Shown here: positions 1 to 62,530 of the stretch, piece after piece
Layout of the letters: the number at the start of each line of letters is the position of its first letter
Position numbering within the stretch: the first letter of the stretch is position 1
Source of the DNA: a virus
Lineage: Duplodnaviria; Caudoviricetes
Virus record (IMG/VR): IMGVR_UViG_3300028805_000060
Span: 80,871 to 144,870 of that record
Length of the DNA: 64,000 bases
Strand: one strand, 5' to 3'
Made by a program: the position numbers and the translations under genes
The notes under the pieces: model-generated
Told to the model about the DNA's origin: nothing
Databases searched by the model: none
What the model saw: the letters and a program-made list of their open reading frames with translations, nothing else

Positions 1-3000
1 ATTGATTTGCCAAATAATATCCTTGATAAGAGATTTTCCTATTAACTTCTGCTGTTTTAACTAATCCAGAACCTATTACTCTAGTTGTAGAAACAGTGAT
101 AGATGAAAAACTAAATTGTCTAATTATTTGTTCTGATGTATCTAAATAAGAAATGGTACCTCTCGAATTTCCAATTGATTGTAAACTCAAGATCTTTTTA
201 TTTGCATCACCATCTTTTAAATAATAAAATATAGGCCCCGATCCTGATCCTGTAGAAAGAGGTGAGGATGAAACAACATGTAAATTAACTGTTCTTTCCC
301 CCGTCCCTGATAATGTTACTCCTGAAACATATAAACTACTTATACTAGAAGAATAAGGATAAGAGGCCCCCGCAATTTGAATTGAGCTATTGCTATTATC
401 AAGGGCTTCACTGAATACTCCATATCTTTTATTTGTTTGTGTTACGACATCTGTTTGTGGATAATTTTCCCCAATACAGAATAAATATGTCGCTGTATCT
501 GCTACAGCATTTATTGTCCCAAAATTAATTCTTGCCTCTTGACTCTTTGATCCAATACAATATATATTGGTTTGTTGTCCATTATCTAGAATCATTTGAG
601 CTCCATCAATTTCTAAATGATAACCTGAATTAACAACAGCATATCCATACACCGTGTCCTCACTGAAAGTATGCCCACTTGGATATCCTCAAAGAACATT
701 ATTAGTATTAGCTAAATAAACTTGAGAAATTCCTGTCCCTGCAGAAATTGTTAATCCTTGCATCTGAACACAAGAATAATTTTGATCTCCTCCTCCATTA
801 GAAATAGTCATATCTTGGGTTATGTTTTCAAAATCTTTTCCCTCGTCCTCTCATCATTCTGAAGGGTCTATAAGATGATCTGCATCTGGTGTAATTTTAA
901 CTGTTAAATTACTGCCTTTTTTAATTAAAAGATCATTTCATCCTAAGTTTCTAAAATATGTTATTTCTTCTGAATTAGTTATTGGATCTACATAATTTAC
1001 TTTAATATTGTCAACACCATCAATTAATTTTATTGATATTAGTGTGCCATTAATATCTTTTTTCCCATATTTAAACCAATTGTAATTACAAGAATTTCTT
1101 CCAGGGAGATTTCCTAATTCAGATCAGATTAAAGTATTATTTCCAACGGATTTAATTTCTTTCCATGAAAAATTAATAGTGTCAGGTTGATCAATAAATT
1201 TACTATAAGGAGTATTCGAGCTTGAGAAGATTTGAACAATTCAACTTTGTCCTTTATTATCTTTCAATAATTTCGGATTCTTTGAAAATGCCATATTTCT
1301 TCACTGCTCTAACATTCTTATTTTTTCATTGGTAGATAATGGCCTATAAACACCATTTTGTAATCTTTCAATATATCCTAGAGATGTATAAGGAATGATT
1401 TCAGATCCCAATAAACAGCTTATATCTCCAGAAATATAATTTTTAGTTCCAAAGCCTACTTTTGAGTAACGGCCTAAAGTTTCGATTTCATTCTTAGAGA
1501 AATTCTGTGCTTGTTGCCCATATTCTGCATTATATTTAAATACCCAAATATTGTTTAAATTCGCTTTAAACTGATTTTGAATTATTGGTAAAGTCCTATC
1601 TGTAGTCTCAACAGGAATTAATTCTGTAAGGCTCCAATATTGTCAAGAAGGAGTAAATATATCCCCTGACACGCTGCTGTGTTTAGCATCTATGTCCTTT
1701 ATACCATACTGATTTACAGAAATATTATTAATTTGAGTATAAAGAATATACTCATAAGAGTATCCACTCTTTATATTAAAATCTCGGAATGATTTTTCTG
1801 AAGAATTTATTATAACAGGTTCTCAATCTCCAATAACAAATTCTGTATCTAATGAATTAAAAGAATTTTTATATTGTTCTCATTGTCTTCTGTAAACAGA
1901 ATAAATAATTTCTCCTTCATAAATCTCTTCCGTTGTAGAGTCCATAATATTAAATAATATTGATTGAGAATCACAATCTATTTCCCCTACTAAACGAATA
2001 GGTGTATCTCCTCCTGATGAAAAATAAACTTCAAAATCAATCGTCTTTTCTAAAATTTTTCCAAATTCATCTGTAACTAAAAGTGTAGCAGAATATTTAT
2101 TTTTATTATCTAGTTGACTATTAGATAGACCATAGAAATTAACTTTAATCTCTTTATCAAATTGCTCCCCTGTATCTTGGATTACTTCTCCATATGAATT
2201 CTTTAAAATCCATCTATAGGATTCTCAAGACGCTTTTTGTTGTTGATGATATTCACCTGTAAATTCAATTCCTCTCTTGTCTACACTACCATATTTAAAC
2301 GGAGCATAATTTGAGTCAATAGTTAAATATCCTTGTTCATAAATAGAAAACGGGTTTTCATCACTGTGTTTGAAATAACTTCGAATTTCATATTTATAAG
2401 GAACATTTGGGTCATCAGGATCTTGAGAAGGTATAGTCCCTAAAGTTGAATCATAAGTTACTTTTCATATAGTTTTATCTAAAGAATTAATTCTGATTCA
2501 TTGAGTTTTATTGTCTCCTTCTCCAACGTATCCATTTATTAACTTAATCCTTTGCCCTTTTTCAATATACTGATATGGAGAAATCAAAACCTCTCCGTCC
2601 GTATTATGTAGTACTTCGGTGTCATATTTATTATATTGAACAGTTGAACTAATAGACCAGCTTGTATTTAAATATTTATATACAGCCCCTGTATTACGCC
2701 CTTTTTTGATAGCCATGAAAGTATTATTGTCCTCTGGTCCATATGTTTTTGTTATTTCTCAGATGAGATTTTCATTTGTATCTAATACTGCTTTTAATAA
2801 ATAGGCTGATGCATAATTTCACGTCCCTGGTTGACCGTCTCTATAACAAACGTAGCATAAATCTCCTAATTGAACTTTTATCCCATCTATTTTATCTGTT
2901 GGTAGCAACAAAAGAAGAGAATTTATTATAGGAAAATAAATAATTTGAATAGCATAAGCAACTGCACCTGTAACAGCATTAAAAGTGATTCTACCTAGCT

Positions 3001-4774
3001 GTTGATCTATTTGAATATTGGTAGTGCTCCCCAATATATCTTGGACATAAATATTATAGCCATCCTTTGTTGGTACATCAACAGTAACTGTTTGAGTTTG
3101 GAATGTTGCAGATATTCTTTCTCCCATTATTATATCATAAAATTGACTAAAAGTATAAATATTTTCTGATTTATTATTGAAAAGAACAAGAGGGAGTTCT
3201 TCTATCCAATAGAGAGGAGAATCCGCAGATTTATATTGAGATGAATTATCTGTATAAAATAAAGTCCCTCCTACAAAAGCTTGAGATTGATAATTTTTTC
3301 CTCCATTTTTTTCTCCTGAAATTATAAAAATTACTTTTCCCAAAAAATCTCCTCATTTAGCATAGCTCCCAGATCTTTTCCATGGAGCATCTCTATCATA
3401 AATATAAATTCCATTCTCTTTTGGATCATCTTGGTCTTTTACTAAAATTCTTTCCCCATTTGACAGAGAGTATCCATCTATGGCTCCTAAGCCAGGATTT
3501 GTTGGAGATTCGTCGACATACAAATTAATATTTGATGTTGTGGCACAAGAAACTTTATCATTATCTAATATATATTCAGGGTTATTGCTATATTTATAAA
3601 AACGAGCATATTTTGCAATGTTTACTTCATCTAAAGACAATTCTCCTTCTCTTGGATAAACGTGTCCTAAAGTAGAATCATATGAATTCACATAAATTCT
3701 GCTTGACACAATATTCGAACTATTTGAATCTGAATCTTCTGTAAAAAGTTCCATCCAAGTTCCTTGAAGCACAACAGGATTTTCTGAAGAAAAAGTTGGA
3801 ATCATCCAATTTGGAGTAATTTCATCTCCAAAATTTTTAGCAATTTGAATTCTTTTAGTAGTTGTTCCTAAAATTTTTCCTGAAGAAAGGGTCATATCAA
3901 ATCAATCATTTGACAAATTATCATAATTAATACGATGCTCAATGATTACTCCCTCTCCTTGGAACAATTCTATTGATCACTTGTATGTTTTATTTTCAGT
4001 AGAAAATTCTATCTTATTACCTAGAAAATCTTCTCAACCATATTCTGTTGTTTCTTTAAGAGCTGGTATTGAAGTTTCATTTTCATCATATTCATATACT
4101 TTCCCTCCATACTGACCGCAAAGAATTAAAATTTTCTCTCCTTCTTCCATATCTGAAAAAGTTTTAACAGGAATGAGACATTTACCTTCTCCTACTTGGA
4201 ATATTCCTCCTATCGAATTTAATTGAAATATCATTTTTGGAACTAAGACTAGATCTCCTACAGATACTTTATCTTGATTATTATTTATATAACCATCCCA
4301 TGAAGATTCTCCGTCAACAAAATATTCTAATTGAGGATTCCCTTGTTGATTATAAACAAGTTGCCAATTTGTCGTATCTGCTAAAAAATAATTAGCTTTA
4401 TAATTAACAGAAAAATATACTGCATTATAAGAATCTAATTTAGATTCAGAATTGATATTCTGAAAAAATGGAATATATAAAAAAGTTCCGTTAATTCCTG
4501 TATTTGAATCTTGTTCATAATCTTCAGGTAAAAAATTTTGAAGTTCAGATACTGGGCTTATATATTTGTCCGAGTCTTTACTTGGAAAAATTTCATTATT
4601 GTTTTCATCAAAAATATGGATTCTATAACCTGTTATATTTTTATTAGATGTATTAATTTTACATTTAAGCCATTCAATATTAGGAACATTAGGACTTCCT
4701 ATAATTTCAGGTACAGTTCTAATATCAATATTATTTAAGAATGGATAACAAAATGTTGGTTTGTAAACTGCCAT
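1..4774 (-). CDS. Large tail/baseplate protein (>1590 aa, runs off the window start; TGA=Trp)
   Basis: ATG at 4774 with GGAGG RBS. Track fragments 4034, 3353, 2819 and 2498 share one frame and each ends in TGA; the frame has no TAA/TAG down to position 2. Contains IDGYSLSNGERILVKDQ..ENGIY, an Fn3-like FRDFNIKSGYSYEYILY and NYISG/KLLKDNKGQSWIVQI segments. Lies directly downstream of the tape-measure gene. Confidence 0.75.
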
Positions 4775-4885
4775 ATATTGACCTCCTTTGTAATTTTGTT
4801 TTTCTGTGTTTATTCAACACTCTTTAACTTAAAAAGATATACTCTTTTTCTTTAAACAATATATCTGTCTAAATCAAAGAGTGTC

Positions 4886-4912
4886 GACAGAGGGAATATG
4901 TATCCCTCTGTC
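4886..4912. terminator. Hairpin after the tape-measure gene (GACAGAGGGA-7nt-TCCCTCTGTC)
   Basis: Perfect 10-bp stem. The T-run lies on the + side, so its orientation is ambiguous. Confidence 0.5.
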
Positions 4913-4938
4913 TTTTAATTCAAAATAAAAGATTACTT

Positions 4939-7900
4939 TTATCTCTTATTTTTTGTAAGAGAAACTCTTTCTCTGATAGAACGAACGAATGCGTCCGCAT
5001 CAAAGCTTTCATCAGCTGCAACATTCATTGTAAGATTTTCAACATGGAATGATTCATCATTAACTGCTGAATTATTTCGTAAATTATCTAATGCTTTCGC
5101 TGAATTTAATCCTCTTAAGATATCAGGAGTCATTTCTCCTAATCTCCAAAGATTTGTTGTAATATCTGATGGAACAATACCTGTCTTAGAAGGTAAAGCT
5201 GTTAGAGTTCCTTGTGGTGTAACAATAGCTTCTGTACCAAATTCATTTAGAAGAGATAAACCACCAGCTGAAGATAGAGAACCTATAGAATATTCTATTG
5301 GCTTTAAATTATAAAATTTACCATTTTTATCTTTATAAATATACTCTATCTCTCCATTAGCTGCTTTTAAGAGAGTCTCTTTACCAATTCATTCATTCGG
5401 GAAAGAACCTTCTTTAAATATTTGTTTTGCTTCTCACTTTTTTCATGCTGGTAATTGTGTCCACCCAGATGAAGGAATTTCATCCCCAGGAACTACACCC
5501 TCATAGAAAAATCCTTCTCCCAATGAAATATCATTGATTAGATAATCTTTATAATCATCTGATAAACTATCCCCAATTATATAAGGTTGTCCATCTATCA
5601 CGATAGGTTTTAAAGAGCTTCCAAAACGACTTAAATCTCATCTTGCTGTAGTACTTGCATTTCAACGACCTGGAGATTTTAATATAGAATTGAAAAGAGT
5701 ATCTTCTCCAAAATGTTCTTGTATCTTCCCTCGAGTTTCTTCTGAAAGATTTTTATCATTATAAATATCTCGAATTGTATTTGCTGCTTGAGCTCTATTC
5801 GTTTCATTTTGCTTCCAGTCTCTAGTAATACTTAAAGCTCTTGAAATATTACTCTCTACAGCTGCATAATTTTCTCCTTCGGTAAATTTTTCTTCTGTAT
5901 CTTGATCAATAGATTTATTATAATGTTCTTTAATATTTTCAAGAATTCCTAAAATAGAACTAGAAGAATCCGCTCCTATAACTTTTTTCGTTTCTTCAAC
6001 GACAGCTTTCAGTCCTTCATAATCGGCGTCTTCTTTCCATTTAGTGAGAGAATCCTTAATTGATTGAAGTTCTGTAATTTGAACATCTAATTTTGAAATA
6101 ATTTTTTCATTCTCGATATCTTCTAAAGCTTTTTGTTTTTCAAGAATATTTCCTTGATCGGCTTCATATACGAAACCCAATCCTTCTCTTCAAACTCTCT
6201 TCTTTTCTCTTTGTGCATTTTCAAGATCTATTCTAGCTTTAATTAATTTGTTCTCATACTCTCTTTCTTTATTAACTTTTTGAATTTGATCTTTTTGAGC
6301 ATTTAAATTAGAAATTTGATGATCCAAATCTTTACTTAAATAGTCTAGAGTTAAATCCATTAATTCATTTCACTTATCAGAAACTAAATCTAAACTATCT
6401 AAAATGTCGGTAGTTTCCTTTTTAATTGTATCTAATTTTAATTCAGTTCCATCATCATCAAGTACTAATCCATTTCAGCTGTTTATCCAATCTATAAATT
6501 GTTTTCAAGTAGAAATTCCCATCAAATTTGTTCTTTGCATTATTTGATTTTCAAAAGAAGTATCATCTAATCCTGACGCTGTTTGAACTTCTTCAATTAA
6601 TTTATCTCGATGTTCTCCAAAGAACTTTGGATTACCAAGAACGTCTTCAAAAGAAGATTCATTATAGAGTTCAATTGTTTTAGTATATTTATCAATAAAT
6701 TTACTTGCTAATTGTTGGCTATCTCCTAAATATTCTATTAATTCAGGATAGTTCTTCACAATATATTCTTGGAATTTAAATGCATCAGTAAAAATTTTCG
6801 AAATTGAACTTATTCCTTCACTTAGTTTATTTAGATTTTCTGTCAAAGCAGTAGTACCAGCATTTAATTCTCCTAAAGTAAAATCTTTTCAATATTCGAC
6901 GATGTCAGAACCTTCTTTTAATGAATCTGTTGGTGTCTTTAAAGCAGAAGCAAAATCTTGTAAAAGTTCTTCATCCTTCTTTATAATAGCTTTATTCAAA
7001 GTGAAACTATTTCCTGTTCAGAAATCTCTTAAATTGTCGTTTTGTCTAATTGCCTTTGTAAACAATTCATCATTTAAAGAGTCCCTTTCTATCCCTAACG
7101 TATTTACCATGTAATCATTAATAACTTCTTTTAAGCCATTCCTTGAATACATAGAATATAAGTAATCTTGAGAAGCATCTTTTAATCAGATATTATTTTT
7201 ATCTTGAATTGAATCAATTGCGGTTGAATATCCTTCTTCAACAACCTTTGAATAATCATCTTCTCTCTTTTTTATATCAAACTCTAAACCAGAAATTATT
7301 TCTTCAAGTAATTCCTTAGTATATTCTTTATTTGTGAAAACATGGGCAGTATTATCATCTAGTATCCAGGTGCTAAATAATGTATCAAAATGATTCAAAG
7401 CACCGTTTAAATGATCTAATACAGACTCTAAAGAGTCGCCGCCAACAAATTGCTTCACAAATCTAGCAGCTAATAGATGTCCTTGCCCTTTCCCATTTAA
7501 ATTTTCTTTATATTCGGACAATTTAGTTCTTTCATCTAAAGAGAATTTGTCTTGAACCCCATTGAAATTTATTAGAGATTGTGCTGCTGTTAATGCATTA
7601 TAAATTTTTGATATATTTTGAGAATCTAATGAGAGATTATCTATTATTGATTTTAAAGAACCAGTATCTTCTACTTCTAATCCATTCTTATTCAAATATT
7701 TTACAAACTGCTCTCGGAAATCTTTCTCTGTATCCTTATCAGAAGAAACAGATTCTACTATTTCATTGACAGCATCATTCCACTTTTTAAAATCTTCACT
7801 TGTCCATTCATTAACACCTTTTACTGAATCTGCAATACTGTCTAAAGAAGATTTTATTTCATCCATCTTTTCTAAGATTTTCTCATTTCTTTTAATAGCT

Positions 7901-10900
7901 TGGAGTCTTGCAATCTTTTCTTCTTCAGATGGCAAGTGTGCTGCTAAGAAAGGGAAAAACTCACTCACAAGAGCTTGGACAAGCATTCCTACCAAAGGTC
8001 CTCCTAAAGCTGTAGCAATTCCTGTTGCTGCTCCAGTAACAACACCAGAAAGAATTTTTGTATCAGCTGACATTTCATAAGTCTCACCGTCTTGTTGAAT
8101 TGTTTTTGGAGCCGATAATCCTGCCATAACACCCGCTCCAACACCTGCGAGAGCTCTTGTGGCTATATTTGCACCCGATAACTTATTCTTTGCTTTAGGT
8201 TGTCCTTCTCCTTGAGGAGTCGAAGTATTATCAGTTCCTCCTTGTGATGTACTAGATTGATTAGAAATTCCTTTATTACCTGTTTGTTGAACAGTTGTTT
8301 GAGTCTTTCCAGTAGAAGCCTTGTTCGAACTTACTTCTCTATAAATTCCTTGAACATTTTCATCAAGATTTTGAACATGAACTCCAAAAGAAGTACTTAA
8401 TTTTTCAGTCTGCTTATCATAGAAATTTCCTCCAAGGAGTTTTGCCTTTACCCCCTTTGATAATCCAGAGCCTCCTGTGAGTCCAAAGAACGAGCCTGCC
8501 ATTTTTAATAATCCAGGAATCTTGTAAGTATTTAACATAGCAAATAAAGTGCTACCATAACGGATAATTTTAGGAAGAGCTTTAACTAGCCCTGTAGAAA
8601 CTTGAAGTATGCTTTTGAGAAAAGCAGCAATATCTGCATTATTAGCTAATTCTTCTCATGCTGCTTGCAATTTCTTTGTCCAAGCCTCAATTGATTCTTG
8701 ATACGCTTCATACTTCCTTTGAGCTGTTCCTGCTGATTCCTCAGACGTTTTTAAAAGCTCATGATATTTATCCATATTATCGAGTAATACTACAAATGAA
8801 TTTCGTTGTCTTGTCAAAATTGTTGTTAATAACCAAACGAAAATTGGCTATTTTTACCCGTTTTTCGGGCAGTAGAACATTTCTGTCTACTCTGCATTTT
8901 TGTCAAAAATTTAGATTATATATGCAGATCGGACTATAACTTCACCCTTTCGGGGAGGAACGTTTAGTCTCTACGGATTCTATTGTGTTATTTTTATTTT
9001 AAGAATTGTAATATTTTATTTTGTCAACTACCATTATTGATATCTTCTGGGTATAAAGCAAGACATTTTACATTATATTTATGAATTAAATCTAATTTGC
9101 ATTTTGTTTTCATGTCATAATTTTTATATCCTGTCAGACCAAAATATTCAATATATTTGTCATTTATTTTCCAGTCGAATCTTTTTTCTCCACATTCTTC
9201 TTTAGGAATCACTTCTTTATATAAAGCTTCTTTTTGGAATTTAAAATTATTATCTATTAAGAAATTAGAAATAATCTCTTCAGTTTTAGATAAACAAACA
9301 TTGTTTAATTTATCATAAAATAGAGTATCACTCATAATTAAATGTTGATAATTTTCTCTTTTTATTCCAATTAATTCAAAAGCTTTTGTCACACTACCAA
9401 AATACCTTCTAAAAGTTATTTCAGAAGGAAGTCCGTGCAATTGAAACTCTGCTATCAAAGGAGTTCTTTCTAATTTACGCACCACTTCTTCTAACTTTTC
9501 TAATAATACTTCTTTATCATACCATTTTAATCCTTTCTCAGAATTCTTTTTGAGACCCAATCTTTTTGCCTGAGTTACTAATTCTTTTGGGGTTAAATTT
9601 GGATAATATTTTTCATGAAGATATTTATTAGTATATTTAGGATATAATTCTCTAAATTGTTCTTCGTCTTCTGTATGGATAGCATTTAACTTACGATAAG
9701 TAGGTAGATTATGTTCTTTTAATATTCTACAAATAAAATCACTACTTCTTCCTAATTTTTCTGCCATTCTGGTTGGAGTCATAACTTGGTAATTATTTAA
9801 AATAAAATCAAGTTCTTCTTGCTTTAAATGACATTTATTATAAATATCTCTTGAGAGATGATACCTTGATGCATAAGTAAGAATACTTGTTTTACTTTTT
9901 GTTCCTAAAATTTCATATAATTCTTTCCAAGGAGTATTCGGATAATATTGCTTTAGAAGTTCTATTTTTTCATCTGTTCATCTAAATCTGGCCATATTAT
10001 TACCTCCTTTCTTTTTATAAATAACACAATAGTCTTTCCTCGGTATTGCCCTTCTCAGGGGTTTCACCGATATGGTTCCTTTCTATTTAATTTATATAGC
10101 GTAAAATCATAGATTTCTCTATGTTCAGGCACAAGACTTATCTACCTGCAAACGCTGTTGCAATTGCATTCTTAGAAACGTTATCTAATGTTATCCATTT
10201 TTCTGATAAATCTTCTAAGATATCATCAAAATCTCTGAATTGTAAATTAGTATCTCTGACTGCAATTCCAATCTTTCCTAGAACTTTTTCTACATCGTTT
10301 AAATTACCTTCTGTATCAGAAGAATCATAGTCAGTGCTTAATTCATCAAAGGCCCCTGCTTTAACTGCACCATAACGAGATATAATTGTTTTCAATGCTT
10401 GTCCTACAGAGCTACCTGACTGTTGAGAAACGTCGGCAATTGTAGCAACCATAGCTGATGCTTGGTCAATATTAATCCCGTTTAATCCTGCTAAGCTTGC
10501 AAATTGGCTTAAACCTGTTGCGATTTCTCCAGCTGAAGTTGCCGCTTTAATATCTATTGCTGTTAATTTATCAACAACTGACATTGCATCAGTAGCTTCT
10601 AACTTAAATCCTTTTAAACTGCTTGTTACTTTATGTTTAGTAGAGTCGTTAATTCTACCGTCTTACGACCTCATAGTTTCCCATGAGAACTGACTATATC
10701 ATCACCCTTATTATAAGGGGGCACTTACTTCCATTCTACTTAGAATGTACTCTCTCTCGAGATAGTCGATGGGGCTGGATCCTAAAAGGATCCCTGCCTG
10801 CTGATTGCCCAATCTTTACTACTTCACTTCTGACTGAATCTTGCGATCTCAGTTAGTGAGTAAAGCTCTAAGGGTTTTCCAGCATATCAAGTGCTTTATT

Positions 10901-13900
10901 TTTCTAAATATTACTATTTAGCAGACCTATTTTTATATTGTTAAGTCTTTTGTAGCAGTATTAACATCTAACATACCTAATTTACTTAAATACATAGATG
11001 CTGTGATTAATTTATTTGTTTCGCTAACAGAATAACCTTGTCTGAGCCACTCGTTCGCGCTTGTTGCAACTTCAGTTGTTGTTGCACCAATCTGCTTTGC
11101 AAGTTGTGCATAATCATTGATCATTTGCTTAGCTTGATCTGCATTAGCTCCTGATACAATACGGAGATTAGTCATAGCTTTATCAAGTTCTTTTGCTGCT
11201 TGAACAACTTTTTGAATACTACGACGAACGGTTTGCATTACTTTTGAAACAAGACCAAATCTCATGAAGTTTGTAAATGTTCTATTTAGTTGCTGTGATA
11301 ATTGTCCCCAGAAAGTACTTTGACCTTTATTTCTGACATTTTCTCCAGCTAAAGCTAATTTAAGAGATTTTTCTGCTTTATCTTTTATTTCGTTTAATTT
11401 GTCTGTACTATAGCCCTGTTTCTTATAGCTTTCTTCTGCAAGTTTGACTCTTTCTTCAGAAGCTTGTAAAGATTCTTTTATCGCCTCTTCTTGCTCTCTT
11501 AGAGAAGCCAATTCGACTTCATCCATAGTCATAGCTTGACGATTTTTATTACTCTTTAACGAGAGAGCGTATCGATTATACTCTCTATAATCAGCTTTTA
11601 ATCCACGTAAAGCTGCAGCTTCTTCTCTGTTAACACCAGCTTTTTCTTCTGGAAATACAGATTCTTTTATATCAGAAACCATTTTTTCAGCTTTTCACTG
11701 TTCTTTAGCATAAGCTTCGTCTTCATCAGTTCAGCCTTTAATGTCTTTGATCTTTTCTTTACTACGATTTAGTTGTGCTCTTCTAGCTGTTAAAGAATCT
11801 ATTTCCTCTTCATATTCTTTTTTCTTTTTATTTTCTTCGTCAGCCGCTTGCAAATCTCTATTGATTTCTTTTTGTTCTTCTGTTTTTGCTTCTTCCTTTA
11901 ACTTATTAAGCTCGTCAATTCTAGCCTTAACACTTTCTAGTTCATTAAAGAAAGCATAAAATTCTTTTAAATCATTCTTAGTAAGTTTTGTATCTTTTGA
12001 AACACTCTCTTTTGGTTTCGAAGAATTGGCCATGTTTGCAATTTTAAATTCAGCTGGAAGATTCTCTAACTTTGGACGAAGTTCCTTCTCAATTAATTCT
12101 TGAGCTTTAGGATCATCAATATTTCCTATTGCTATTAATTGCGCCATCAAGTTCTCAATTCCAAGTTTATTTAAAGAACTCATGTTTGCTTGCCAAGATC
12201 TTCCTTGTCCAGAGTCTGCAGTTCCTAATATTTCTAAAGTAAGATTACTAAGATCATTGTTTTTCAAAAATTCAAACTCTTCTTTAGTAAGATCTTTTTT
12301 AGTAACTGTTCGATATTTTTCTCCATAAGCAGCAAGCATATCATCATAAGTATAATTCTTATTCTTAAATTCTGCCTGCATTTGCTTAGCAAGAGTTGCA
12401 TACATTCCTACTTGGGCAATATATTGAGGCTTTAAAATCTCATCTATAGTTTTCCCTGTTTTAATATCAGACAAATATACTTTTCCGTCTTCTCCTATCG
12501 TGAATAAGTCAGAGAAACCATAAGAAGTACTAGGATTACCATCTATATTATGAGAAGAAGCGAGAGGAGTTTCTGCTCCTATAAATTTTCTTCCCTTTGT
12601 TAATTTTAAAATATTTTGGATATTTTGATCTGTAACTGAACTAAATGTTTTAGAACCAGTAGCAGACTCAATAATGTCCATTATTTCTAATAACTCTTTA
12701 GGTCCACCTAATCTTTCTTTCATTAAAGAGAGTATATTTTCTGCTTCAGTAAGTTGGTCACCCTTATATTTATTAGATTTAACGCCTGTACGAAGTTCTC
12801 TCAAAATATCTTCTCATGAAGCATTATCACGATCTACGCTACCTAAAGATAAATTCGCAGCATTAATTCTCTCACGAATATCTTCTATTCCACTTGCAGA
12901 ACTAGACCAATATTTTTCATCTATTCTTTTTCGTTCATCTTCTGATAAACTATCATATATTTTCTTAAAATCATCTAAGGATGTTATATCTTTAAAAGCT
13001 TCTTCATTGGAACGGATATTAATTAAATTTTGCCCAATATTAGCCAATTTACCTCTGAATGTAGGGTATAAAATTTTTAAGAATTCATCTCTCTCCCTTT
13101 CAGAATCAAAACCTAATAACTTATCAGTTGACCCTGTATTTTTATATCCTATAATTCTTTCATAAAATTCATTTTCTAATGATTCTGCTAAAGATGCTCC
13201 TTTAAATGGGAATAATATTTTTGTTAAACCAGTAACAGAGTTTGTCTTTCCAGTACCTCCCTGGTCTACCATATCAGAAACTTTTTGATAATTATCTATT
13301 CCTTCTTTGATACCTTTAGTAAGGTTATTGATCTTAATAGTAAGGTTATCAATGCTCTCGTTAGCTCCATTAGCTGCTTTTTGTAAATTTTCAAAACTTT
13401 GCTTACTTTCATCGTTTATAGTTATATCTGCAACTGAAGCATTTCCTGTTCCAGGTAAATTTCTTTCATTTGTTTTTTTATTATAGAAATATGGATTAGA
13501 AACAATTTTATATAAATCTTGTTCTCCGTAAGATCCTAAATCTTTATTAAAATCTCGTAAGATATTACCAAATGATTTAAAAGAATATTTTCCGTCACTG
13601 GCATCTAGCCACTTTTCATCCCCAGTATATTGATATAAAATAGCAGCAAGATTTTTTAATCTTTTTTTATCAAATGCTACATCCCCTGAAGTATCTGCGA
13701 TGCCTCATTTTTCTAATACTGCTCCTAATCTACTTCACCCTTCTTTAGTTGTAAAAGTGCTTTCATCTTTTAAGACTTCTTCTATTTCGCTACCAATATT
13801 AGTTGTAATTTCTTGTAAAAATTTTTCATCATCAAGAGAAGCATCAATACCAAGCGCTTCTCCTAGAGCTGTTTTATCTCCTTTATATCGATTTAATAAT

Positions 13901-16900
13901 TTTTCAAAAACTTTTTTCGAACTAATGGCATCTTGAGAAAGAGAAGTAAAAAATTCTGAAGCATACTGTGCTCCAACAGAAGTTTGGAATCTTTCATTAC
14001 CTTTTATTGAATTAAGGAAGCCTTGTCTGATATTATCAAAAACACCAATTTTATCACGATTTTGTCTTGTAGCGAGTTCTGCTGCTGAAGCAGCTAAACT
14101 ATTCCCACGAGAAGCAAAATCGTCTAAAGTAATGATGTCAGAAGAAGTTTTATCTTCTTCATATAATTTTTGATTTTTCTTTTCAAAAGACTTCATTATT
14201 TTTGTTCGTTTTCTAAAAAGTTCTAATTGTTTTAATAAAACTTCTGTATAAGCTTTTGCTTGCTCTTCTGTAATATTACCTGCAGCAAATTCTGATCTGA
14301 CATTTGCTAATGCATTTGCAATTGTATCTCCATCAACGTCGGCATTAAGAATATCCATTGTCTGTGAATCGACTTGGATTGCGTCACCTAAATTTCTCTT
14401 ACTAGAGGCAAAAAGCTCTGTAATAGGAAGGTTCTGGCCATTCAATAGAGGGAAACGAGTTAAGAACTGAAGAAGTCCTTTTGCGTTTTCTTTGTCGAAA
14501 CCTTCTTTATCAATATCGACGGCATCTATTATCTTTTCGATAACAGACTGTGGAGTATCATCTTCTGAAATTTTTATACCAAGACGATCTGCCTCTCTAT
14601 ACAAACCTTTTTTGTATCCTTCTTCATCTTCTCCTTCTGCTCGTTTGAGCATTTGTCTTAAACGTTCAGTAGAAACTATTCCTACAGCTCCCCTAGAAAG
14701 AATACCAGAATCTCCTCCCGAAATAATTCTACTAAAAGCAGAATGAGATAAACGAGCATTATGAAGAGACTTGTATTTTTCAGATTTTTTATTATTAACA
14801 GAGTCTCACATATCCTTAAGTGCCGTATAAGCACTTTCGTTCATTTGTTCCTGAATTCTCTCTTTTTGTTGCCTAGTTGTAGAACCCGCTATTTGAGTTA
14901 AACCAGAACGCTTAGAGTGAATAAGACCTTCCATTGCCTTAATATTTTCTAAAGCAAGGAATCCTTCTGCATTATCTTTTGGAACAAGATATTGTGTTCC
15001 ATCTTCATCTTCTACTATCTCAAATGCATCTGAATAGTTTCCAAATTGAATTGCATCACCTTTTATATTTACTCCATTTTCATCAGTATAATTATAAGCA
15101 TAATCTAGGTAAGCATCTTTACCTTCAGATTGAGCTTTATATACCTCTCCGAATATTGAGTTTTGAAAGTCTTCTAGACGGAAACCTCTTCTCCCATTAA
15201 AATCTACTTGTTCTAGACCTGCATGCCCTGCAATTTTTTCATTGCTTCAAGGAATAATAACTCCCTGCTCACTTGCTATTTCGTCGGCAGTCTTTTGACT
15301 CCCTCTAATAATGTCATCAACAAGATTTACCGATCTTCCTCCTTCTTCTTTCGAAAGATCTAAGTTATTTTCATACACTGTTTTTAGAACATTCTTTGCA
15401 ACAGAAGCTGTTTCTTTAGAAATTAATCCTGCTTTGACTGCAGCATCAGCTTCTCTTTCAAAGTCATTTATCATTTTATAGCCCATATTAACAGGACGAC
15501 CACCTTTTCGAGTCGGATCAAAATATGTAGCTACATCCTGAATGTTCCATCTTTCAATACCAATAACTCCACCGTTACTCTTAGTTTGTATTGAATCTTC
15601 TGTAACTTTGAATTGAGAATCTTCGCCAGTCGCATAGACAAAAGCCTTTATAAAATCAAAACCAAAATTTTGGCTAAGTAAATTCTTTTCCTCTTCTGAC
15701 AAAGAATCAAAATTTTTATTTTCTTCAATAACTTCTTTATAAATTTTGTTAAAATTTCCAAAAATAAAACTACCATCTTCTGACATGCCTTTAAAATATT
15801 TATCAACAAAATCACTAGGTTTTATTTTAAGTTTATTTAAAATTGGTTTTAGTTTTTTTGTTGCTTTCATAAAAGCTTCGGTGAAGTCAGTTTTGGCTTC
15901 ATTGTATTTTTGATTTCTTCCTTCTTCACTTTCAGCATTTCTTATTGCTTGAGATCTTATAGAAGTAAATTCATTAATAATAGAAGGAATATTTTCTCCT
16001 AATTTACGAGAACCTGTCTTAAGTTCTGTAATCATATGCACATTCAAAGAACCATCTCGATTAAAAATATCTTTAGGATCAAATCCAGCTTTAATTAGAG
16101 CTTGCGCTAAAATTGCATTTTTTACAGTAATAACTACTCCATGAAGTCCTGATTCTGCAGCTATTTTTTCTCCTGTTTTTAATTGAGCATATTCTTTTAC
16201 AGAAGCAATTACCTCTCCTTCTTCATTTTTTTCGAGATCTACATGATATTTGTCACCTTTTCCTTTTAAGTGAAGAACACTTCTTAATGCTGCTTGATCA
16301 ACATAATCTTTTTGACCCTGAGATAATTTTTCATCTAATTTAGTAATATATCTATCAATTTTTTCGAGCTCTTGATCATTCATTTTAGATCTTTCTTCTG
16401 GATTTAAATATCTTTCAATTAAAGGGTCATCTTTCAGATCCTTTTTATTCATTTTAAGAAGAAGCTCTTTTTTCTTTTGCTCTATTTTTTTTAGTTTATC
16501 TGTATCTAATTCAACTTTATCGATTTCTCTTAAAGAAGTGAGGATATTTTTATTTCCTTTTCGCCCTGAGGTATGACTAATTTGTTCAGATACTAAAACT
16601 TGTTCATAATCTCTCCCAAAAGAAAAATCACTTTCTGGAAAGATCTCATCAAAAAGTTTTCCTTTCTCCTCTTCAGACATTTTACCATTTTTATCTAAAG
16701 CCTTTTTCATGTCTTTCATTCTATGAGCTTTTTGTGCTGCTTGATTCCAAATAGCTGTAGGAATTTTTGATTCACCCTTAATAAAAGACTCTCTCATTAT
16801 TTTTCTAAGATCTTGTCCGCTCGTATGATCATTTGTTTTCGCATGACGAAGACCAACACCTTGTCCAAGACTTTGAAGCTCTACTCCTGTATTTTTTGCA

Positions 16901-18060
16901 TATTCATATGTTTGAGCTGAGACATTCCCAACATCAATTTTAGCAGAGCTCTTTTTTCTACCAATATTTTTTAATCCCATATTACCAGCTTTCGCGCCTC
17001 TGCTCCCTCTTTGAGCAAATTCTTGACCTGGAGTAAGAGAAGAACCATGACCGATAGAGATATTACCTTTTGACAAAGCTGTTTCTGCTATGTTACTAAA
17101 AGTCACAGGGGTTATCTTTGCCATTTTTAATAAATCTGTTTTCATCCCAGCCCAAGCAGGCGATTTAGTAATATAATCATATTGGGAATTACCTTCTATT
17201 CCTTTTATAATTTTATCTGCTTCTTTGGGATTAGTAGCAGCTAAAAAATAAATTGATTTTAGATTAGACTCAATTTGTCTCTTATAATAGATACTGTTTT
17301 CTTTATTGTTATATTTAGCAATTTGGTTAGAATATTCTTCTTGGATTTGCCTGATACGTACTCCAAAATTAAGTCTTTGTGTTTTTAATAAATTTTCATT
17401 AATTTTAGTTATATCAATACCTAATTCTTTAGAGAGCTCTTTTTTAGCCTCATCCATTTCTGCTTTAGTAGCGACTAAAGTATCAACGTTATTTATAGAA
17501 GAAGCGGGATAAAAATATTTTCTAATATCATCCCTTTTTGATTGAGGTAAAGAACCTGTGCTTCTAATTTCTTTATTAGCTTCTCTAATCATTGCTTGAA
17601 TTTTGCCACCAGGTTTACTTATAAGTTCTGCTAATGTATCAAATTCAGCTTCTTGAAGAGTACACCAACCTTCCTCTCCTGTTCTTTTACTTCTATAGTA
17701 AACGAGACTATTAGCTTCTTGGTGTCCGTTTTTAGAAATTATACCTGCTCCTGTCTCTAAGGCAAACCCATATTCAACTCCTAATTCAGGATGCCCTTTT
17801 GGATAAAATACTAATTGATCTTTACTATCATCAATTCCACAATCTCAGTTAAGCGATCCAAGATAAGAATATATATCATTAAGAGAGCGCTGAACAGAAA
17901 TAGCTCTAGAAATAGAGTTCTCTTTAATTTGAGTTAATTCACTTTTAGTTAGCTCTTCTCCCAGAGTAATATCTAAACGAGAAGAAAAATATTCACCTGT
18001 ATAGCTTTTATACTTTTCACCAAGTATTGATTGTATATCACTTATATTTCTTATAGCCAT
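4939..18060 (-). CDS. Giant spliced multidomain tape-measure protein (3825 aa): two-barrel RNA polymerase domain + RecB-like PD-(D/E)XK nuclease + TP901-family tape measure. Exons 18060-10944, 10628-10144, 8814-4939
   Basis: AAAGGAGG RBS before the ATG. Eleven track fragments share one frame; the gaps contain only TGA (about 21), apart from the stops inside the introns. Tape-measure motifs: ELDKAMTNLRIVSG..QIGATTTEVATSANEWLRQG, KDLTSSLKGFKL, AGTRQRNSFVVLL, RVWREGLGFVYEAD and C-terminal YSIG..LLNEFGTEAIV. Confidence 0.88.
8815..10143 (-). mobile_element. Group I intron 2 in the tape-measure gene (1329 nt, carries a homing endonuclease in the P6 loop)
   Basis: 5' exon ends CAGGU and pairs with GCCUG (U.G wobble); P10 UCUUGU pairs with 3' exon ACAAGA. 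P AUCGGUGAAA, Q AAUACCGAGG, R GUAGAGACUA, S AAGUUAUAGUC; P3 AGGAAC/GUUCCU; terminal G at 8815. Splicing restores AG|TRQRNSF. Confidence 0.93.
8994..9995 (-). CDS. Intron-encoded homing endonuclease (333 aa; N-terminal helical repeats, HNH-associated repeat, C-terminal PD-(D/E)XK/Vsr-like nuclease)
   Basis: AAGGAGG RBS. MARFR-W(TGA)-TDEKIELLK; WYDKEVLL..RTP..LPSEITFRRYFGS repeat; SKTEEIISNFL..RFDWKINDKYIEYFG. Flanked by the stem CTATTGTGTTATTT/AAATAACACAATAG. Confidence 0.8.
10629..10943 (-). mobile_element. Group I intron 1 in the tape-measure gene (315 nt, no ORF)
   Basis: Exon GACU pairs with GGUC (U.G wobble). P AUGCUGGAAA, Q AAUCAGCAGG, R UCGACUA, S GAUAUAGUC; P3 GCACUU/AAGUGC; terminal G at 10629. 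Splicing restores KD-L-TSSLKGFKLEATDA. Confidence 0.92.
12150..13240 (-). other. RecB/Cas4-like PD-(D/E)XK nuclease domain within the tape-measure polyprotein
   Basis: Motifs SVT, AETPL, GFSDLF, LSDIKTG (12454-12474) and YIAQVGMY (QxxxY) in correct order. Confidence 0.8.
13900..17050 (-). other. Two-barrel (double-psi beta-barrel) RNA polymerase domain within the tape-measure polyprotein
   Basis: Motifs in canonical beta then beta' order: GSSLTP..SRGAKAGNM (16978-17046), GRDYEQVLVSE (about 16585-16617), LKTGEKIAAESGLHGVV (16132-16182), DGSLNVHM..GSRKLG, ARLSHSAFSRII, LTRFPLL (14443-14463), GDAIQV..NADVDGD (14326-14346), then IGVFDN..LSQDAISSKK. Confidence 0.8.
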
Positions 18061-18262: not shown

Positions 18263-19213
18263 TTAAATAGTTTTATATTCTAATAACTTGTTATGTTGAT
18301 AACATTTTCCATCTTCAATAACTAATACATTGCATACTCCACTGTAAGCTGTGCAAGCATCAATTGCAATAAGATTTGGGGAATAGAAAATATTAAAATC
18401 AATTTCAGTCTTATCTCTTGTTCTTCAATAATCAGTGCCATAGTAATGAACTTTAAATTCAAAACAATGCCAATGGCCACATACTAATATTTTTCCTTTT
18501 TCTTTTTCTGAATCAAATAAACCTCTGTCAAACAAAGCATATGGACAACCTCAAGTTGCTTGTTCAAAATCTTCATTAGATGAATTCGTTCTCCAGTCTT
18601 CTTTTTCAAACAATGATTCATAGTTCGGTTGATACATGTGCATCCCTTTAGGTTTATTCACAGGAATAAAAGCATGACAGAAAATATAATTGTCTAATTC
18701 AAAATAATCATTTCACTCATTAGAATCAAAAATCCAATTTAAAATATCAGTTTTTTTCACTTTATTAACAATTTTTTTCCATATCTTTTTGCCATAAGCA
18801 ATGTCATTTTTTGTAACCCAACTAAAACAATAATTTTCCATTGAATCTATTATTTCTTTAAGATATTCATAATCTGTTTTTAAAGAACTCTCTTCATGAA
18901 GGTTTAACCCTGCTAATTGAAAAACTGTTAACATAGTCCCATTGCTGATATCATAACTATTAGGGAGAGATTTATTAAGAAGGTCTCTCAATAGATATTC
19001 ATGATTGCCTCTAATTAATATTCTTTTTTCTTTTGGCAATGTTCTAACAAAATTTAAAGTTTCTAAAGTTTGATCACCTCTGTCAAAAAGATCCCCATTT
19101 ATAATAAGAATATGTTCATCATTATTAATATCAAACCCTGCTTCATCTAAAGCCTGTTTAAATGGGGTAAAAAAACTATGAACATCTGATGTGATAAAAT
19201 ATTTTTTACTCAT
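18263..19213 (-). CDS. Calcineurin-like metallophosphoesterase (316 aa, TGA=Trp)
   Basis: SDVH, GDLFDRG, RGNHE and, after the TGA, FCHAFIP, TWGCP, GHWH and AIDACTAYSG. The C-terminal catalytic motifs need readthrough. Confidence 0.88.
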
Positions 19214-19251
19214 TTTTCTTCTCTCCTTGGAACCGTTAATTTTGATTACAT

Positions 19252-21528
19252 TTATCTCTCTAAGAATTTTTCTCTTAGAGAGATAATGTCTGTTTTGAAT
19301 GGATATTCTTTTGTTTCTTTGTTATAATAAGTATTATACAATTCTTTACAATATCCATAGAATAAGTTCTCTATACTAGAAGTTAGCATACCTGTTTTAG
19401 TGATATAGCCACATCTTAAAGTAGTCTGTGCTACACCTCTTAATTTTTTCCATAATTTATAATATCCTGTTTTTAATTTTGTCATAAAACCATTCTGATC
19501 TACAAAAACAAAACCTTCGATAAATTCATCGTTATATTTATAATCTTCTTCTTGAGATTCATAATAGAGATTTCTAAAATCTTCCCAAGTTTTTAATTCA
19601 TATAACTTTTGTTTAATAGGGCAACCAATGTAAGTTGCAATATTTTGTAGTCTAGAATAATCTAAAATTTCATATTCTAATTCATTTTTAACCCCATCTA
19701 AAAGAACAAGTTTAGATTCATTATATTTAATAATATGAGAGTCTTTTTCTATATCTATGCATTCAAACACTAAAGAATAACTATCTCCATCCTCATAGGC
19801 TGTTTTTAATAACTTTAATGTTTTTTCATAATAAGGTTTCAATTGTTGCTTAATATATTCAACATAATCTCCACCTGTTGTAGATTTAGAAGCTATAAAT
19901 AAATTATCTTTATTTGGATTATATGAAACTATTGCTAAGAAACCATTCTCCTTTAAATAGGCTTTAACAGGAAAAGCTAGTTTATTTTTCAAAGTAGCTA
20001 ATTCAGTTTCAGGTCTTTCATTAATATTAAAGAACTTTTGATATGACCTTGCTATAATACTATTATTTATAGTATCAATAAATAATCCTCTTGCTAAAAC
20101 GGTCTGTCTATTCCAGTTTCCTTTTAAAAAGGCTTCTCTACTAAAATTGAATGATGAAATACCATCAGATAATGTTTTTTCATTTACAAATTTATTATTT
20201 CTTAAATAGGCAATTGCTTCTTCTACCGTTTTAACTTTTCGTTCTTCTGTAACTAAATTTTCATCTACAGGTTGACAATCTTCTAATTCAATAATATTCC
20301 AGCCAAATAAAGTATTTAAGCCATACGGAATTCTATCCCCAGATTCAGTTATTCCATAAGCTGGAATTATACCTTTAGTTTCTAATTCAACAATTCTTAA
20401 ATTACCACCAAACTCGACTTTACCTTCCAAGTTAAAAACTCTATCGGCAAGTCTGGTTTCAGAATCTTCTGTATTTCTATGCCCATGAATTAAGTATTGA
20501 TTATCTTTAGTTTGACCCATCCAAGATTCAGCAATAGTTAAATAATCTTCATAATTTCCTACGCCTTTAATTATAGATTTAGTAGGAAAATATAATAAAT
20601 TAGTATTTAAATTAGGAATACCTCCATGACAAGCAAGTATTTCTACCCCATTGTACATTATGTGAGAAAATTGTCTAAATTTTCTATACAATTCCCTAGC
20701 AGATTTTTCACTAAATCCTTTGGCAATTAATTCTTTTTTAGTTTTATACTCAAACTCATTTGAATTTGTAGGAGACCCACAACCATAATCATACAAATGT
20801 CTCTCATGATTGCCTTCTAATAAACAAACATTTGGTTTATCTTTAATAGAATTTAAGAATTGTAAAACTTCTACATTCTGATTTCCACGATCAATATAAT
20901 CACCTAAAAAGATGTATTCAGTATCATCTTTTAATCCATTTTTAAAATCTGGATATTGCATTAGAGTATCATAACAACCATGAATATCTCCAACAAAAAC
21001 CAACTTTTTATACTCAGATAAATCAACTGGCTTCTCTAAAATCTGATCTAGCTCATTAGGTTTAACAACAGTTACCCCTGAAGGAACTGACTGTGTAGCA
21101 AATCTAGCATATATATTTTCTATGGCTTTTTGAGGAACTTGTTTGTATTCAGGTCTCATCTTATTTTGAGCAATACAAGTCTCTAAAGGAACATCAGTAA
21201 AATCAACACAATACATCCTATATCTATAAGAAGATGCAAGATTTTTATATTGTTGTATATCTTTTGTCTTTGATGCAGTTGCATCAATAACTGTGAACTC
21301 ACCACGAGACATTCTATACTCAAGAATTTTGAATAATACTTCCCAAGTCATAGATTCATTTTCTCTATTCTGAGATATTTTTAATTCCCCTGTAGGTTGC
21401 ATTTCTAATGAACTGCAATATACTCTTAAATCATCAGGTGAAAGAGTATAAGGTTCTAAATGATGTTCTTTGATCCAAGTCGTCTTACCTGCACCTGGAG
21501 CTCCTCTTAATATAACTAATGTTCTCAC
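19252..21528 (-). CDS. Trifunctional RNA repair enzyme: polynucleotide kinase + metallophosphoesterase + Rnl1-type RNA ligase
   Basis: GAPGAGKT P-loop with SPDDLR and IDAT; GDIHG/GDYIDRG/GNHE/HGH; ARGLF, KFFN, KENG (ligase motif I), EGFV and KLK. Confidence 0.88.
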   Translation of the reverse strand: MRTLVILRGAPGAGKTTWIKEHHLEPYTLSPDDLRVYCSSLEMQPTGELKISQNRENESMTWEVLFKILEYRMSRGEFTVIDATASKTKDIQQYKNLASSYRYRMYCVDFTDVPLETCIAQNKMRPEYKQVPQKAIENIYARFATQSVPSGVTVVKPNELDQILEKPVDLSEYKKLVFVGDIHGCYDTLMQYPDFKNGLKDDTEYIFLGDYIDRGNQNVEVLQFLNSIKDKPNVCLLEGNHERHLYDYGCGSPTNSNEFEYKTKKELIAKGFSEKSARELYRKFRQFSHIMYNGVEILACHGGIPNLNTNLLYFPTKSIIKGVGNYEDYLTIAESWMGQTKDNQYLIHGHRNTEDSETRLADRVFNLEGKVEFGGNLRIVELETKGIIPAYGITESGDRIPYGLNTLFGWNIIELEDCQPVDENLVTEERKVKTVEEAIAYLRNNKFVNEKTLSDGISSFNFSREAFLKGNWNRQTVLARGLFIDTINNSIIARSYQKFFNINERPETELATLKNKLAFPVKAYLKENGFLAIVSYNPNKDNLFIASKSTTGGDYVEYIKQQLKPYYEKTLKLLKTAYEDGDSYSLVFECIDIEKDSHIIKYNESKLVLLDGVKNELEYEILDYSRLQNIATYIGCPIKQKLYELKTWEDFRNLYYESQEEDYKYNDEFIEGFVFVDQNGFMTKLKTGYYKLWKKLRGVAQTTLRCGYITKTGMLTSSIENLFYGYCKELYNTYYNKETKEYPFKTDIISLREKFLER

Positions 21529-24067: not shown

Positions 24068-24277
24068 TTAGTATAAGAATGTAGGGTGTATATCTATATA
24101 AACACCACCAGACGCACTATGTCTAATCATTCTAAATAAAACACCATTGCAACTAGAAGGAGGATAAAATATAGTACTATAACCATTTTCAAGACCCATA
24201 GTAGTTGCATTCCCTATTGTTATTGATCCAGTGTTATCTATTGGGCTATCAAAGAATAGAATTAAATCAAAATACAT
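24068..24277 (-). CDS. Short ORF, probably the frameshifted C-terminus of the long tail fibre
   Basis: No RBS; overlaps the fibre stop codon; its frame is open upstream as STTASMYFD. Confidence 0.4.
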   Translation of the reverse strand: MYFDLILFFDSPIDNTGSITIGNATTMGLENGYSTIFYPPSSCNGVLFRMIRHSASGGVYIDIHPTFLY

Positions 24278-30200: not shown

Positions 30201-31080
30201 CAGTATAATTTCTTGTAACTGAAGGAGTAATTTCAGGGTTTTGTGTAATAGAAACCTCACCAGAACCTTTTGATAATCCTCCTCCTGATAATCCTCCACC
30301 AGAGGCAGTTCCTTTAGATAATCCTCCACCACTAACTGATACACTAGCACTTGCTAATGGAATATAATAAACACTAGAAGAATTATTACCAACTGAAACT
30401 GTTGTACCAGTAATTGAAGAATGAGAACTATCTCCATATCCAGCACTAGACACATTAGCCGATATTGTTAATGTACTACTATTACTTGGAACATAAACTG
30501 CAGCATAGTAATAGTTTATATCAGAAGTATTAGTAGTAGGAGTTATCGCTATTTGAGATTTACTTGATACTGGTGAAGGAAGAGTTCCTATAGTAGGAGT
30601 TACTTTTGCAGTACCACTTTGAGTGGCAGTAATCCCTATAAGAGGAAGAGTTGTAGTACCAGTAGCAGTAGATGTGTTTCTAGTTCCAGCACTAGATGAA
30701 ATATATCCAGCAGTACCTACTGTTGGAGCACTAACAGTACCTGATAAGGTAACATCGAAGTTCGAATTAGTAGAATTATATGAGATATTTTTACTGACTG
30801 AACTATATGAAGTTCCAGATGTGACTGTTGCTTTTGGTCCTTCAGAATTTGCTTTCACTGTAACTGTACCTAATGCCATATACCCAGTATCTTTAGTAAT
30901 AGCTTGTTCAGTAGCACTAGGAGTTACAGTTTTGTTTTGATAATTAACGATCCTTGATGAAAAATTTTGAGGATCAATTTTATTAGCATCTGTAAGAGGA
31001 GTAGTTGCGGTTCCATCTGTTGCACGAATGGTGTTCGCGATGTCTGTAAGAAAATCTGTTAAATTGTTATTCTTAGCCAT
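24262..31080 (-). CDS. Long Ser/Thr/Gly/Ala-rich tail fibre / adhesin (2272 aa, TGA=Trp)
   Basis: Fragments 27328, 25633 and 24262 are in frame. N-terminal LTDIANTIR, DVLTGKTFY and TVPAGYHNGSGKV fibre motifs; many internal repeats. Confidence 0.8.
29587..29672. repeat. 32-bp perfect direct repeat (29587-29618 and 29641-29672) within the tail fibre
   Basis: agaagcagaaccaccagttgcactagcactag occurs twice; encodes SASATGGSAS. Confidence 0.85.
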
Positions 31081-62389: not shown

Positions 62390-62530
62390 GTGCGCCACCA
62401 CGAATTGGACAGGTTTAGAGTCTCTGACCCGACATATTGGGTGGTCTTTTCTCGTCTTCCATCCCTTTTGACATGCAGGGTTTGTCCCTGCGCTCGGTGG
62501 ACCAGGGTCTCTCGACCAGCCCAAATGAAG
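62390..62530 (-). ncRNA. Candidate structured RNA or DNA element
   Basis: About 54% GC (65/120 in 62401-62520) with several hairpins, including GGTC-GAGA-GACC and GCAGGG-ACAAA-CCCTGC. Confidence 0.4.

Follow-up and report, generated by a model that had tools for sequence, protein, structure and literature searches.

A recoded, spliced tape measure gene with a candidate two-barrel RNA polymerase and a RecB-type nuclease in an SPbeta-like phage of the ruminant gut

What does a giant gene near one end of a 64,000-nucleotide stretch of phage DNA encode, and could the phage tail carry a polymerase into the host as part of its product? The stretch, referred to below as the window, covers positions 80,871 to 144,870 of the IMG/VR record IMGVR_UViG_3300028805_000060, that is, the final 64 kb of a phage record of 144,870 bp, and the gene lies on its minus strand between positions 4939 and 18060. 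A first-pass annotation had read the gene as one open reading frame (ORF) of 3825 amino acids (aa), with TGA as tryptophan and two introns removed, and had assigned to it a two-barrel RNA polymerase (RNAP), a nuclease and a TP901-type tape measure. We find that the phage has no tail tape measure gene other than this one, which encodes one protein of 3,825 aa once the introns are removed. The best explanation of the whole, which we put at a probability of about 0.6, is a spliced TP901-type tape measure protein that carries a diverged two-barrel RNAP and a RecB-family nuclease and would be delivered through the tail.

A tape measure gene split by two introns

Under translation table 4 the locus holds minus-strand ORFs at 18060..10933 (2375 aa), 10584..10138 (148 aa) and 8817..4939 (1292 aa), with a further ORF of 357 aa between the last two. 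Under table 11 the gene is fragmented into about ten ORFs of at least 80 aa, close to the eleven or so that had been expected of standard annotation. Joining 18060..10937, 10621..10144 and 8814..4939 gives 11,478 nt, which is exactly 3,825 codons and one stop, as first proposed. The parts of the gene, in window coordinates, are:

10937..18060, minus strand: exon 1, a table-4 ORF for aa 1-2374 and the first two bases of codon 2375, with the N-terminal region, RNAP-like region, nuclease, a coiled-coil linker and the start of the tape measure domain; colinear with the homologue P0005 from aa 18
10622..10936, minus strand: intron 1, putatively group-I-type, 315 nt, without an ORF
10144..10621, minus strand: exon 2, about 159 aa, the PhageMin_Tail core (PF10145, E=4.7e-18; phrog_4211)
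8815..10143, minus strand: intron 2, putatively group-I-type, 1329 nt, carrying a homing endonuclease ORF
8994..9995, minus strand: the homing endonuclease of intron 2, 333 aa (Pfam HNH_repeat, 1.8e-9; PHROG HNH endonuclease and D5-like matches)
4939..8814, minus strand: exon 3, 1291 aa, the remaining tape measure (phrog_4211 tape measure, 2.3e-11)

The spliced frame contains 21 TGA and 19 TGG codons, and its protein runs from an N-terminal region through the RNAP-like region and the RecB-type nuclease to the tape measure, with DVDGD at aa 1241, DIKTG at aa 1865 and the start of PhageMin_Tail at aa 2319 as landmarks. Both exon junctions (...RDLTGIIKGFKLE... and ...ATAFAGTRQRESF...) reproduce the homologue P0005, an uninterrupted ORF of 4,067 aa in the standard code with 0 TGA and 44 TGG codons. 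PF10145 (PhageMin_Tail) is itself divided by intron 1, profile positions 2-62 lying in exon 1 and 77-201 in exon 2; it scores 66-74 bits against a cut-off of 33.2, PHROG tape measure families match too, and a search of the whole phage genome gave no second PF10145 locus. Exon 3, which is colinear with the C-terminal halves of P0005 and of another homologue, P0007, has glycine-rich hydrophobic segments and a long helical part. The C-terminal 1,500-1,700 residues are a TP901-type tape measure, and on this point the earlier claim holds.

When 1.84 billion representative proteins were searched exhaustively with phmmer, only five proteins came back, the query among them, and word-indexed searches added nothing to this set. 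Scans of viral, metagenome and genome contigs found no further homologues, and tblastn against GenBank phages gave no match to the RNAP part or to the C-terminal tape measure part. Five lineages can be compared, namely the window, the contigs L009/L010, L002 (P0005), L007 (P0007) and L008 (P0008, P0011); they are 25-67% identical, and all five keep the order of N-terminal region, DVDGD region, nuclease and tape measure, the breaks in the L007 and L008 genes falling on runs of N or on an intron. Because four other lineages keep the same order, one of them as an uninterrupted standard-code ORF, the fusion in one polypeptide is real and conserved.

Could the long ORF nevertheless be an artefact, either of a chimeric assembly or of three genes that are never joined? 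Rfam offers no group I match for the introns, and a sheep-gut RNA library from another study, which has contigs identical to parts of the fusion gene (carry-over of DNA is possible), contains no contig or read that crosses either splice junction; this absence also weighs against the spliced gene as we read it. Against an artefact, Logan contigs, which are an independent assembly of the source-sample reads, span 4800-16936 without a difference, P0005 has the same domain order with no interruption, the Pfam domain is split in mid-profile, and the introns show P, Q, R and S elements together with 14 compensatory pairs. Misassembly, which had been named together with a true stop between the domains as a check on the fusion, is rejected, and we regard an artefact of either kind as hardly credible. 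Joints seen among the contigs have sides of only about 20 nt and were taken as spurious.

Both introns appear to be group-I-type and putatively self-splicing, a class that rests on boundary bases, core elements and compensatory pairs, since Rfam (Intron_gpI) recognises neither of them even at E<=10. Each intron is preceded by an exonic U and has G as its last base. Group I introns share the consensus core elements P, Q, R and S with a P7 pairing, a pattern to which the present introns conform. Intron 1 has P as TGCTGG, Q as AATCAGCAGG, R as GACTAT and S as TGATATAGTC, and in intron 2 the endonuclease ORF stands between the elements R (GACTAT, 10034-10029) and S (AGTTATAGTC, 8941-8932). A homologue of intron 1 stands at the same site in L009/L010 and differs by 14 compensatory base-pair changes. 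A repeated AACAA leaves the exact 5' junction of intron 1 ambiguous, and the protein reads ...KDLTISLKGF... or ...KDLTSSLKGF..., at equal length. The site of intron 2, between AFAG and TRQR, is also occupied in L009/L010 and, by about 300 nt, in L008. The number of introns in the tape measure domain varies, with four in L009/L010, one in L008 (at AFAG-TRQR) and none in P0005. The one to four introns of the relatives (L009:10620-13500, L010, L008:10241-10542) all lie in the same 300-aa tape measure core, and two sites are common with the window. Between window positions 11022 and 11149, a DNA contig of run X5 is longer by about 320 bases, and this probably marks a further intron site.

The reading of TGA as tryptophan is supported, at the level of sequence, because the phage encodes a tRNA-Trp(UCA) (genome 45455-45554, minus strand) and because the TGA codons W321 and W526 of its homologue of YonO, an RNAP of phage SPbeta, align with tryptophan in SPbeta YonO. 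Glycine (code 25) was considered as the meaning of TGA and rejected on the same two grounds. Many long frames of the phage are open under table 4 and interrupted under table 11. Stop-codon recoding and introns can, between them, conceal a 3,825-aa gene from standard annotation. The tRNA-Trp(UCA) is unusually long at 100 nt and lies beside a cluster of tRNAs for Gly, Met, Pro (two) and Leu (genome 45564-47709, minus strand).

The phage is a complete, uncultured, SPbeta-like, siphovirus-type phage of about 145 kb from the sheep gut, with a G+C content of 31.6%. The ends of its record overlap by about 135 bp and, because the last 100 or so bases recur at position 35, the assembly is circular or terminally redundant, though labelled 'linear'. 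The sequencing runs with DNA of the phage are sheep and goat gut metagenomes, and the run that holds this DNA at full length may be the source sample.

The polymerase-like region and the nuclease

The protein's N-terminal part contains the following features, again in window coordinates (DPBB, double-psi beta-barrel):

13711..17043, minus strand: RNAP-like region, about aa 340-1450, conserved in the five lineages and holding both motif blocks
15973..16173, minus strand: beta-like (DPBB-B-like) block, aa 630-696
14311..14688, minus strand: beta'-like (DPBB-A-like) block, aa 1125-1250
12181..12693, minus strand: predicted RecB-family PD-(D/E)XK nuclease, about aa 1790-1960

In the beta'-like block, R1202-F-P1204 stands 36 residues upstream of N1239-A-D1241-V-D1243-G-D1245, and the R, the P, the N and DVDGD are invariant in the five lineages. 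The block satisfies the filter [RK]xP-x(20-100)-DxDxD of Chaban et al. (PMC10770324). When the sequence was shuffled (n=2000), NADxDGD arose in none of the shuffles, the DxDGD form of the filter in 0.85% and the looser [RK]xP...DxDxD in 9%. About 600 aa before this block lies the beta-like one, with the pattern G-E-K632-x5-G-x-H640-G641...N-x-x-G670-x14-R685-x-x-G688 and K681 inside it; K632, S637, H640, G641, G670, K681, R685, G688 and N696 are invariant in alignment A4. Its spacing is that of E. coli beta, GDKMAGRHGNKG...ENG-x14-R, a similarity that is not statistically significant, and the order of beta-like then beta'-like block is that of single-chain two-barrel enzymes. We propose that two barrels would together form a single-chain RNAP, one of them beta-like and situated near aa 640, the other beta'-like and bearing NADVDGD at aa 1239-1245.

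Comparisons with known polymerases return to the same two places. The best local matches of hhalign are to NADFDGD of beta' (P=0.013) and to GDKMAGRHGNKG of beta (not significant), and when E. coli beta' 340-480 is aligned locally, Z is 4.5 with P0001 and only 0.8, which is not significant, with P0005. In the ESM Atlas, the named clusters closest to two of the homologues consist of phage polymerases of PF05183 (YonO/QDE-1 type), at 0.79 and 0.84, which serves as a lead only. AlphaFold2 was run with five-row alignments on aa 575-1420 (model 1) and aa 1095-1990 (model 2), and in model 2 a strand-helix...strand-strand-helix arrangement precedes DVDGD, like that of the beta' barrel, at low confidence.

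Several results weigh against a polymerase. No RNAP family was found when the N-terminal 2,100 aa were scanned with Pfam and PHROG, and PF00623 and PF00562 were not found anywhere in the genome at E<=10. Searches of the PDB by sequence and by profile gave only noise at E of about 0.5-1, and hhalign against YonO, gp96 (the tape-measure-fused RNAP of Thermus phage P23-45), E. coli beta and beta' gave probabilities below 4%. The beta motif has His instead of Lys as its second basic residue. Mean predicted local distance difference test (pLDDT) scores are 53.1 for model 1 and 53.6 for model 2, with the motif regions mostly below 50, and Foldseek and VIA fold searches of both models gave no polymerase match, those of model 1 being helical noise only. 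A complex prediction of the two motif blocks with Mg scored 0.00, which is evidence neither way.

It could be, then, that the N-terminal 2,000 residues are tail-delivered cargo of another kind, that the DVDGD loop and the G-x-K motif come from some other metal-dependent or structural domain, and that only the nuclease and the tape measure are rightly named. Every profile, PDB and fold search for an RNAP being non-significant is what such a cargo would give, as is the frequency of the looser motif pattern in shuffles, and in the PDB profile search, where one beta' chain matched at the DxDGD loop, EF-hand proteins scored equally. Yet NADxDGD with its upstream R-x-P is invariant over five lineages at 25-30% identity, the beta-like motif, with an invariant K and R, lies upstream in the correct order, and the same placement on a tape measure is proven for gp96. 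Moreover, accepted two-barrel RNAP families likewise have no detectable similarity beyond the motif (PMC10770324). On balance we consider a non-polymerase cargo unlikely, if well worth keeping in mind. A true EF-hand at aa 1180-1195 was considered and rejected, as the loop positions do not fit.

We therefore return to a polymerase: as predicted from its motifs, the N-terminal region is probably a highly diverged single-chain two-barrel RNAP. The two-barrel claim of the first-pass annotation has gained invariant motifs and has found no significant profile or fold match. By analogy, the assignment would stand about where that of gp96 stood before it was tested.

The nuclease call is supported by its sequence motifs and, more tentatively, by the predicted structure. 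The RecB-family motifs E, D, (D/E)xK and QxxxY are present in order, and E1830, D1851, D1865-x-K1867 and Y1880-x-A-Q1883-xxx-Y1887 are invariant, in agreement with the nuclease first placed at DIKTG. This is the best-folded mixed alpha/beta part of model 2 (pLDDT 50-80), and its best non-helical structural matches are AdnA (Z 7.2; root mean square deviation 5.0, 173 aligned), MGME1 (6.7) and the Cas4-like ACE1 (6.4), followed by Dna2 (5.8) and AddA (5.4); the weak Foldseek list is enriched in Cas4, RecE and Exo5. Pfam PDDEXK_1 matches the homologue P0013 at a sub-threshold E=0.017. AlphaFold and Foldseek, which had been suggested as a check domain by domain, gave RecB-family matches for the nuclease region and none to a polymerase. 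In every lineage the nuclease comes directly after the polymerase-like region.

Promoters, a second polymerase and genome entry

The phage encodes a second RNAP, a single-chain enzyme of YonO type. The YonO homologue, P0010, lies outside the window at genome 1862-4819 on the plus strand (L005:1862-4819); it has 985 aa with DYDGD at aa 550, is 27% identical to SPbeta YonO (BLASTP, 6e-37) and matches Pfam RdRP at 7.6e-11. No YonO homologue was found on the contigs of the relatives; these are partial, and the result is uninformative. A promoter, TTGACT-N17-TATAAT, lies upstream of the P0010 operon at genome 1323-1351, and about ten near-identical consensus sigma-A-type promoters (TTGACT-N17-(A)TCTATAAT) are found at genome 42-79 kb on the minus strand, at 964 (minus) and at 1323 (plus). 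These promoters front early and replication genes; few are found in the structural region, where the fusion gene lies.

Because consensus promoters precede the early and replication genes and the YonO-type operon, these data suggest that the host polymerase can start the programme, and a virion polymerase is then not obviously needed to begin infection. This counts against the reading that we prefer, and it weakens the earlier proposal that the fused enzyme provides host-independent early transcription. The distribution of the promoters fits early transcription by the host RNAP and late transcription by a phage RNAP. In the simplest programme the host RNAP would transcribe the YonO-type gene together with the early genes, and the enzyme so made would probably transcribe the late genes, the tape measure gene among them, as YonO does in SPbeta. 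Were these two enzymes to cover the programme, the fused polymerase and nuclease would be left with a role in entry.

In siphovirus tails the C-terminus of the tape measure is at the tail tip and leaves first, so that the N-terminal polymerase and nuclease would adjoin the end of the DNA. By analogy with gp96, the fusion protein would be present in virions, fill the tail lumen and be ejected at infection, and its tape measure part may form a channel through the envelope. The polymerase and nuclease, being head-proximal, would meet the incoming DNA end and might transcribe it, pull it in or process it. Since the architecture of RNAP-like, nuclease and tape measure parts is real and conserved, delivery of the first two by the tail is a reasonable inference. 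The idea of the tape measure as a delivery handle for the RNAP thus keeps its architectural basis, with the two-barrel fold itself still at the level of prediction.

How far might such an enzyme be removed from gene expression? A working polymerase could serve for primer synthesis or for pulling the genome, with the nuclease processing the DNA end, and the host RNAP and the YonO-type enzyme could carry out all programmed transcription. The host-type promoters before the early genes and the YonO-type operon are in line with this, as are the fusion of the nuclease right after the polymerase in every lineage and the fact that YonO alone suffices for the late genes of SPbeta (PMC5467207), whereas the fused enzyme of P23-45 transcribes defined pre-early genes (PMC10770324). 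We hold a polymerase with no part in gene expression to be quite improbable. A broader possibility, which we still think doubtful, is that the spliced tape measure with its polymerase and nuclease, as preferred here, represents a second, independently assembled tail-delivered machine, in which a cellular-type single-chain RNAP and a RecB-like nuclease would capture, process, reel in or prime the end of the genome and would not launch the gene programme. If that were so, tape-measure-borne polymerases would be widespread and functionally diverse, reaching mesophilic gut phages. The standard-code P0005 is a directly expressible version for biochemistry.

The surroundings of the gene may be noted briefly. 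Directly upstream of it is an RNA repair module (window 18263-21528, minus strand), consisting of a 316-aa calcineurin-like phosphoesterase, present upstream in L009/L010 too, and a 758-aa protein that fuses a polynucleotide kinase (AAA_33), a phosphoesterase and a T4 Rnl1-type RNA ligase. Just downstream is a giant ORF of 1,926 aa without a Pfam match (window 2-4774, minus strand; genome 79864-85644), and a second giant ORF, of 2,272 aa, at 24262-31080 (minus strand) has neither a Pfam nor a PHROG match. The structural-side genes include the anaerobic ribonucleotide reductase NrdD (39530-41461, minus strand) and a tyrosine integrase (42397-43413, minus strand). L002, L007 and SPbeta (yomM) likewise have an integrase upstream of their tape measure gene, of the tyrosine type on L002 (P0005) and L007; YorF and YorH are further neighbours of P0005 on L002. 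Pol III alpha is encoded in the phage genome as well, and the Rfam motif DUF3800-XI RNA occurs at window 62477-62523 (minus strand) with 42.4 bits against a gathering score of 37.8.

Comparison with known systems

The virion RNAPs known had been taken to be packaged in the capsid, and novelty had been claimed on that ground. This does not stand. Experiments have proven that gp96 of P23-45 is a two-barrel virion RNAP fused to a tape measure (Chaban et al., Nat Commun 2024, PMC10770324), and because of gp96 the general idea is already known. The gp96 polymerase is present in virions as part of full-length gp96 and transcribes pre-early genes, among them that of a second RNAP which is not a virion enzyme, and in that study the fusion is known only from P23-45, P74-26, G20c and TSP4 (PMC10770324).

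The protein described here is like gp96 in having a polymerase-like domain with [RK]xP...DxDGD N-terminal on a giant tape measure, and the phage is like P23-45 in being of siphovirus type and in having a second, free RNAP in the same genome. However, there is no detectable sequence similarity to gp96 (no PDB match; hhalign probability below 2%), the motif here is NADVDGD, near the cellular form, and 600 aa separate the two motif blocks. Between polymerase and tape measure stands a RecB-like nuclease, and the tape measure is TP901-type (PF10145), with no metallopeptidase found. In addition, the second RNAP belongs to the YonO type and not to the family of gp64 of P23-45, and its gene lies behind a host-type promoter. 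The phage itself is a mesophilic one of the ruminant gut, with recoded TGA and with introns.

SPbeta YonO is a single-chain two-barrel RNAP of an SPbeta-like phage; its true homologue here is P0010 (6e-37), and the fused domain is not detectably related to it by hhalign. YonO is a free, non-virion enzyme that transcribes the late structural and lysis genes of SPbeta (PMC5467207), and the SPbeta tape measure, YomI, has no DxDxD motif. The virion RNAPs of crAss-like phages (phi14:2 gp66) and N4 are also polymerases within giant virion proteins that are ejected into the host; unlike the candidate here they are not fused to a tape measure and belong to podovirus-type particles, and the N4 enzyme is of the T7 type. 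The nuclease resembles those of RecB, AddA, AdnA, Cas4 and MGME1 in its motif set E...D...DxK...QxxxY and in its best structural matches, but it is embedded in a tape measure polyprotein, its Z scores are only 5.4-7.2 and its Pfam match is sub-threshold.

New beside these systems is a lineage in SPbeta-like ruminant-gut phages whose sequence bears no similarity to gp96; new too are the additional nuclease, the introns, the recoding of a stop codon and the separate YonO-type RNAP with a consensus host-type promoter before its gene. Should the polymerase assignment be correct, Thermus phages are not alone in having tape-measure-fused virion RNAPs, which bears on how long-tailed phages begin infection and bring in their DNA.

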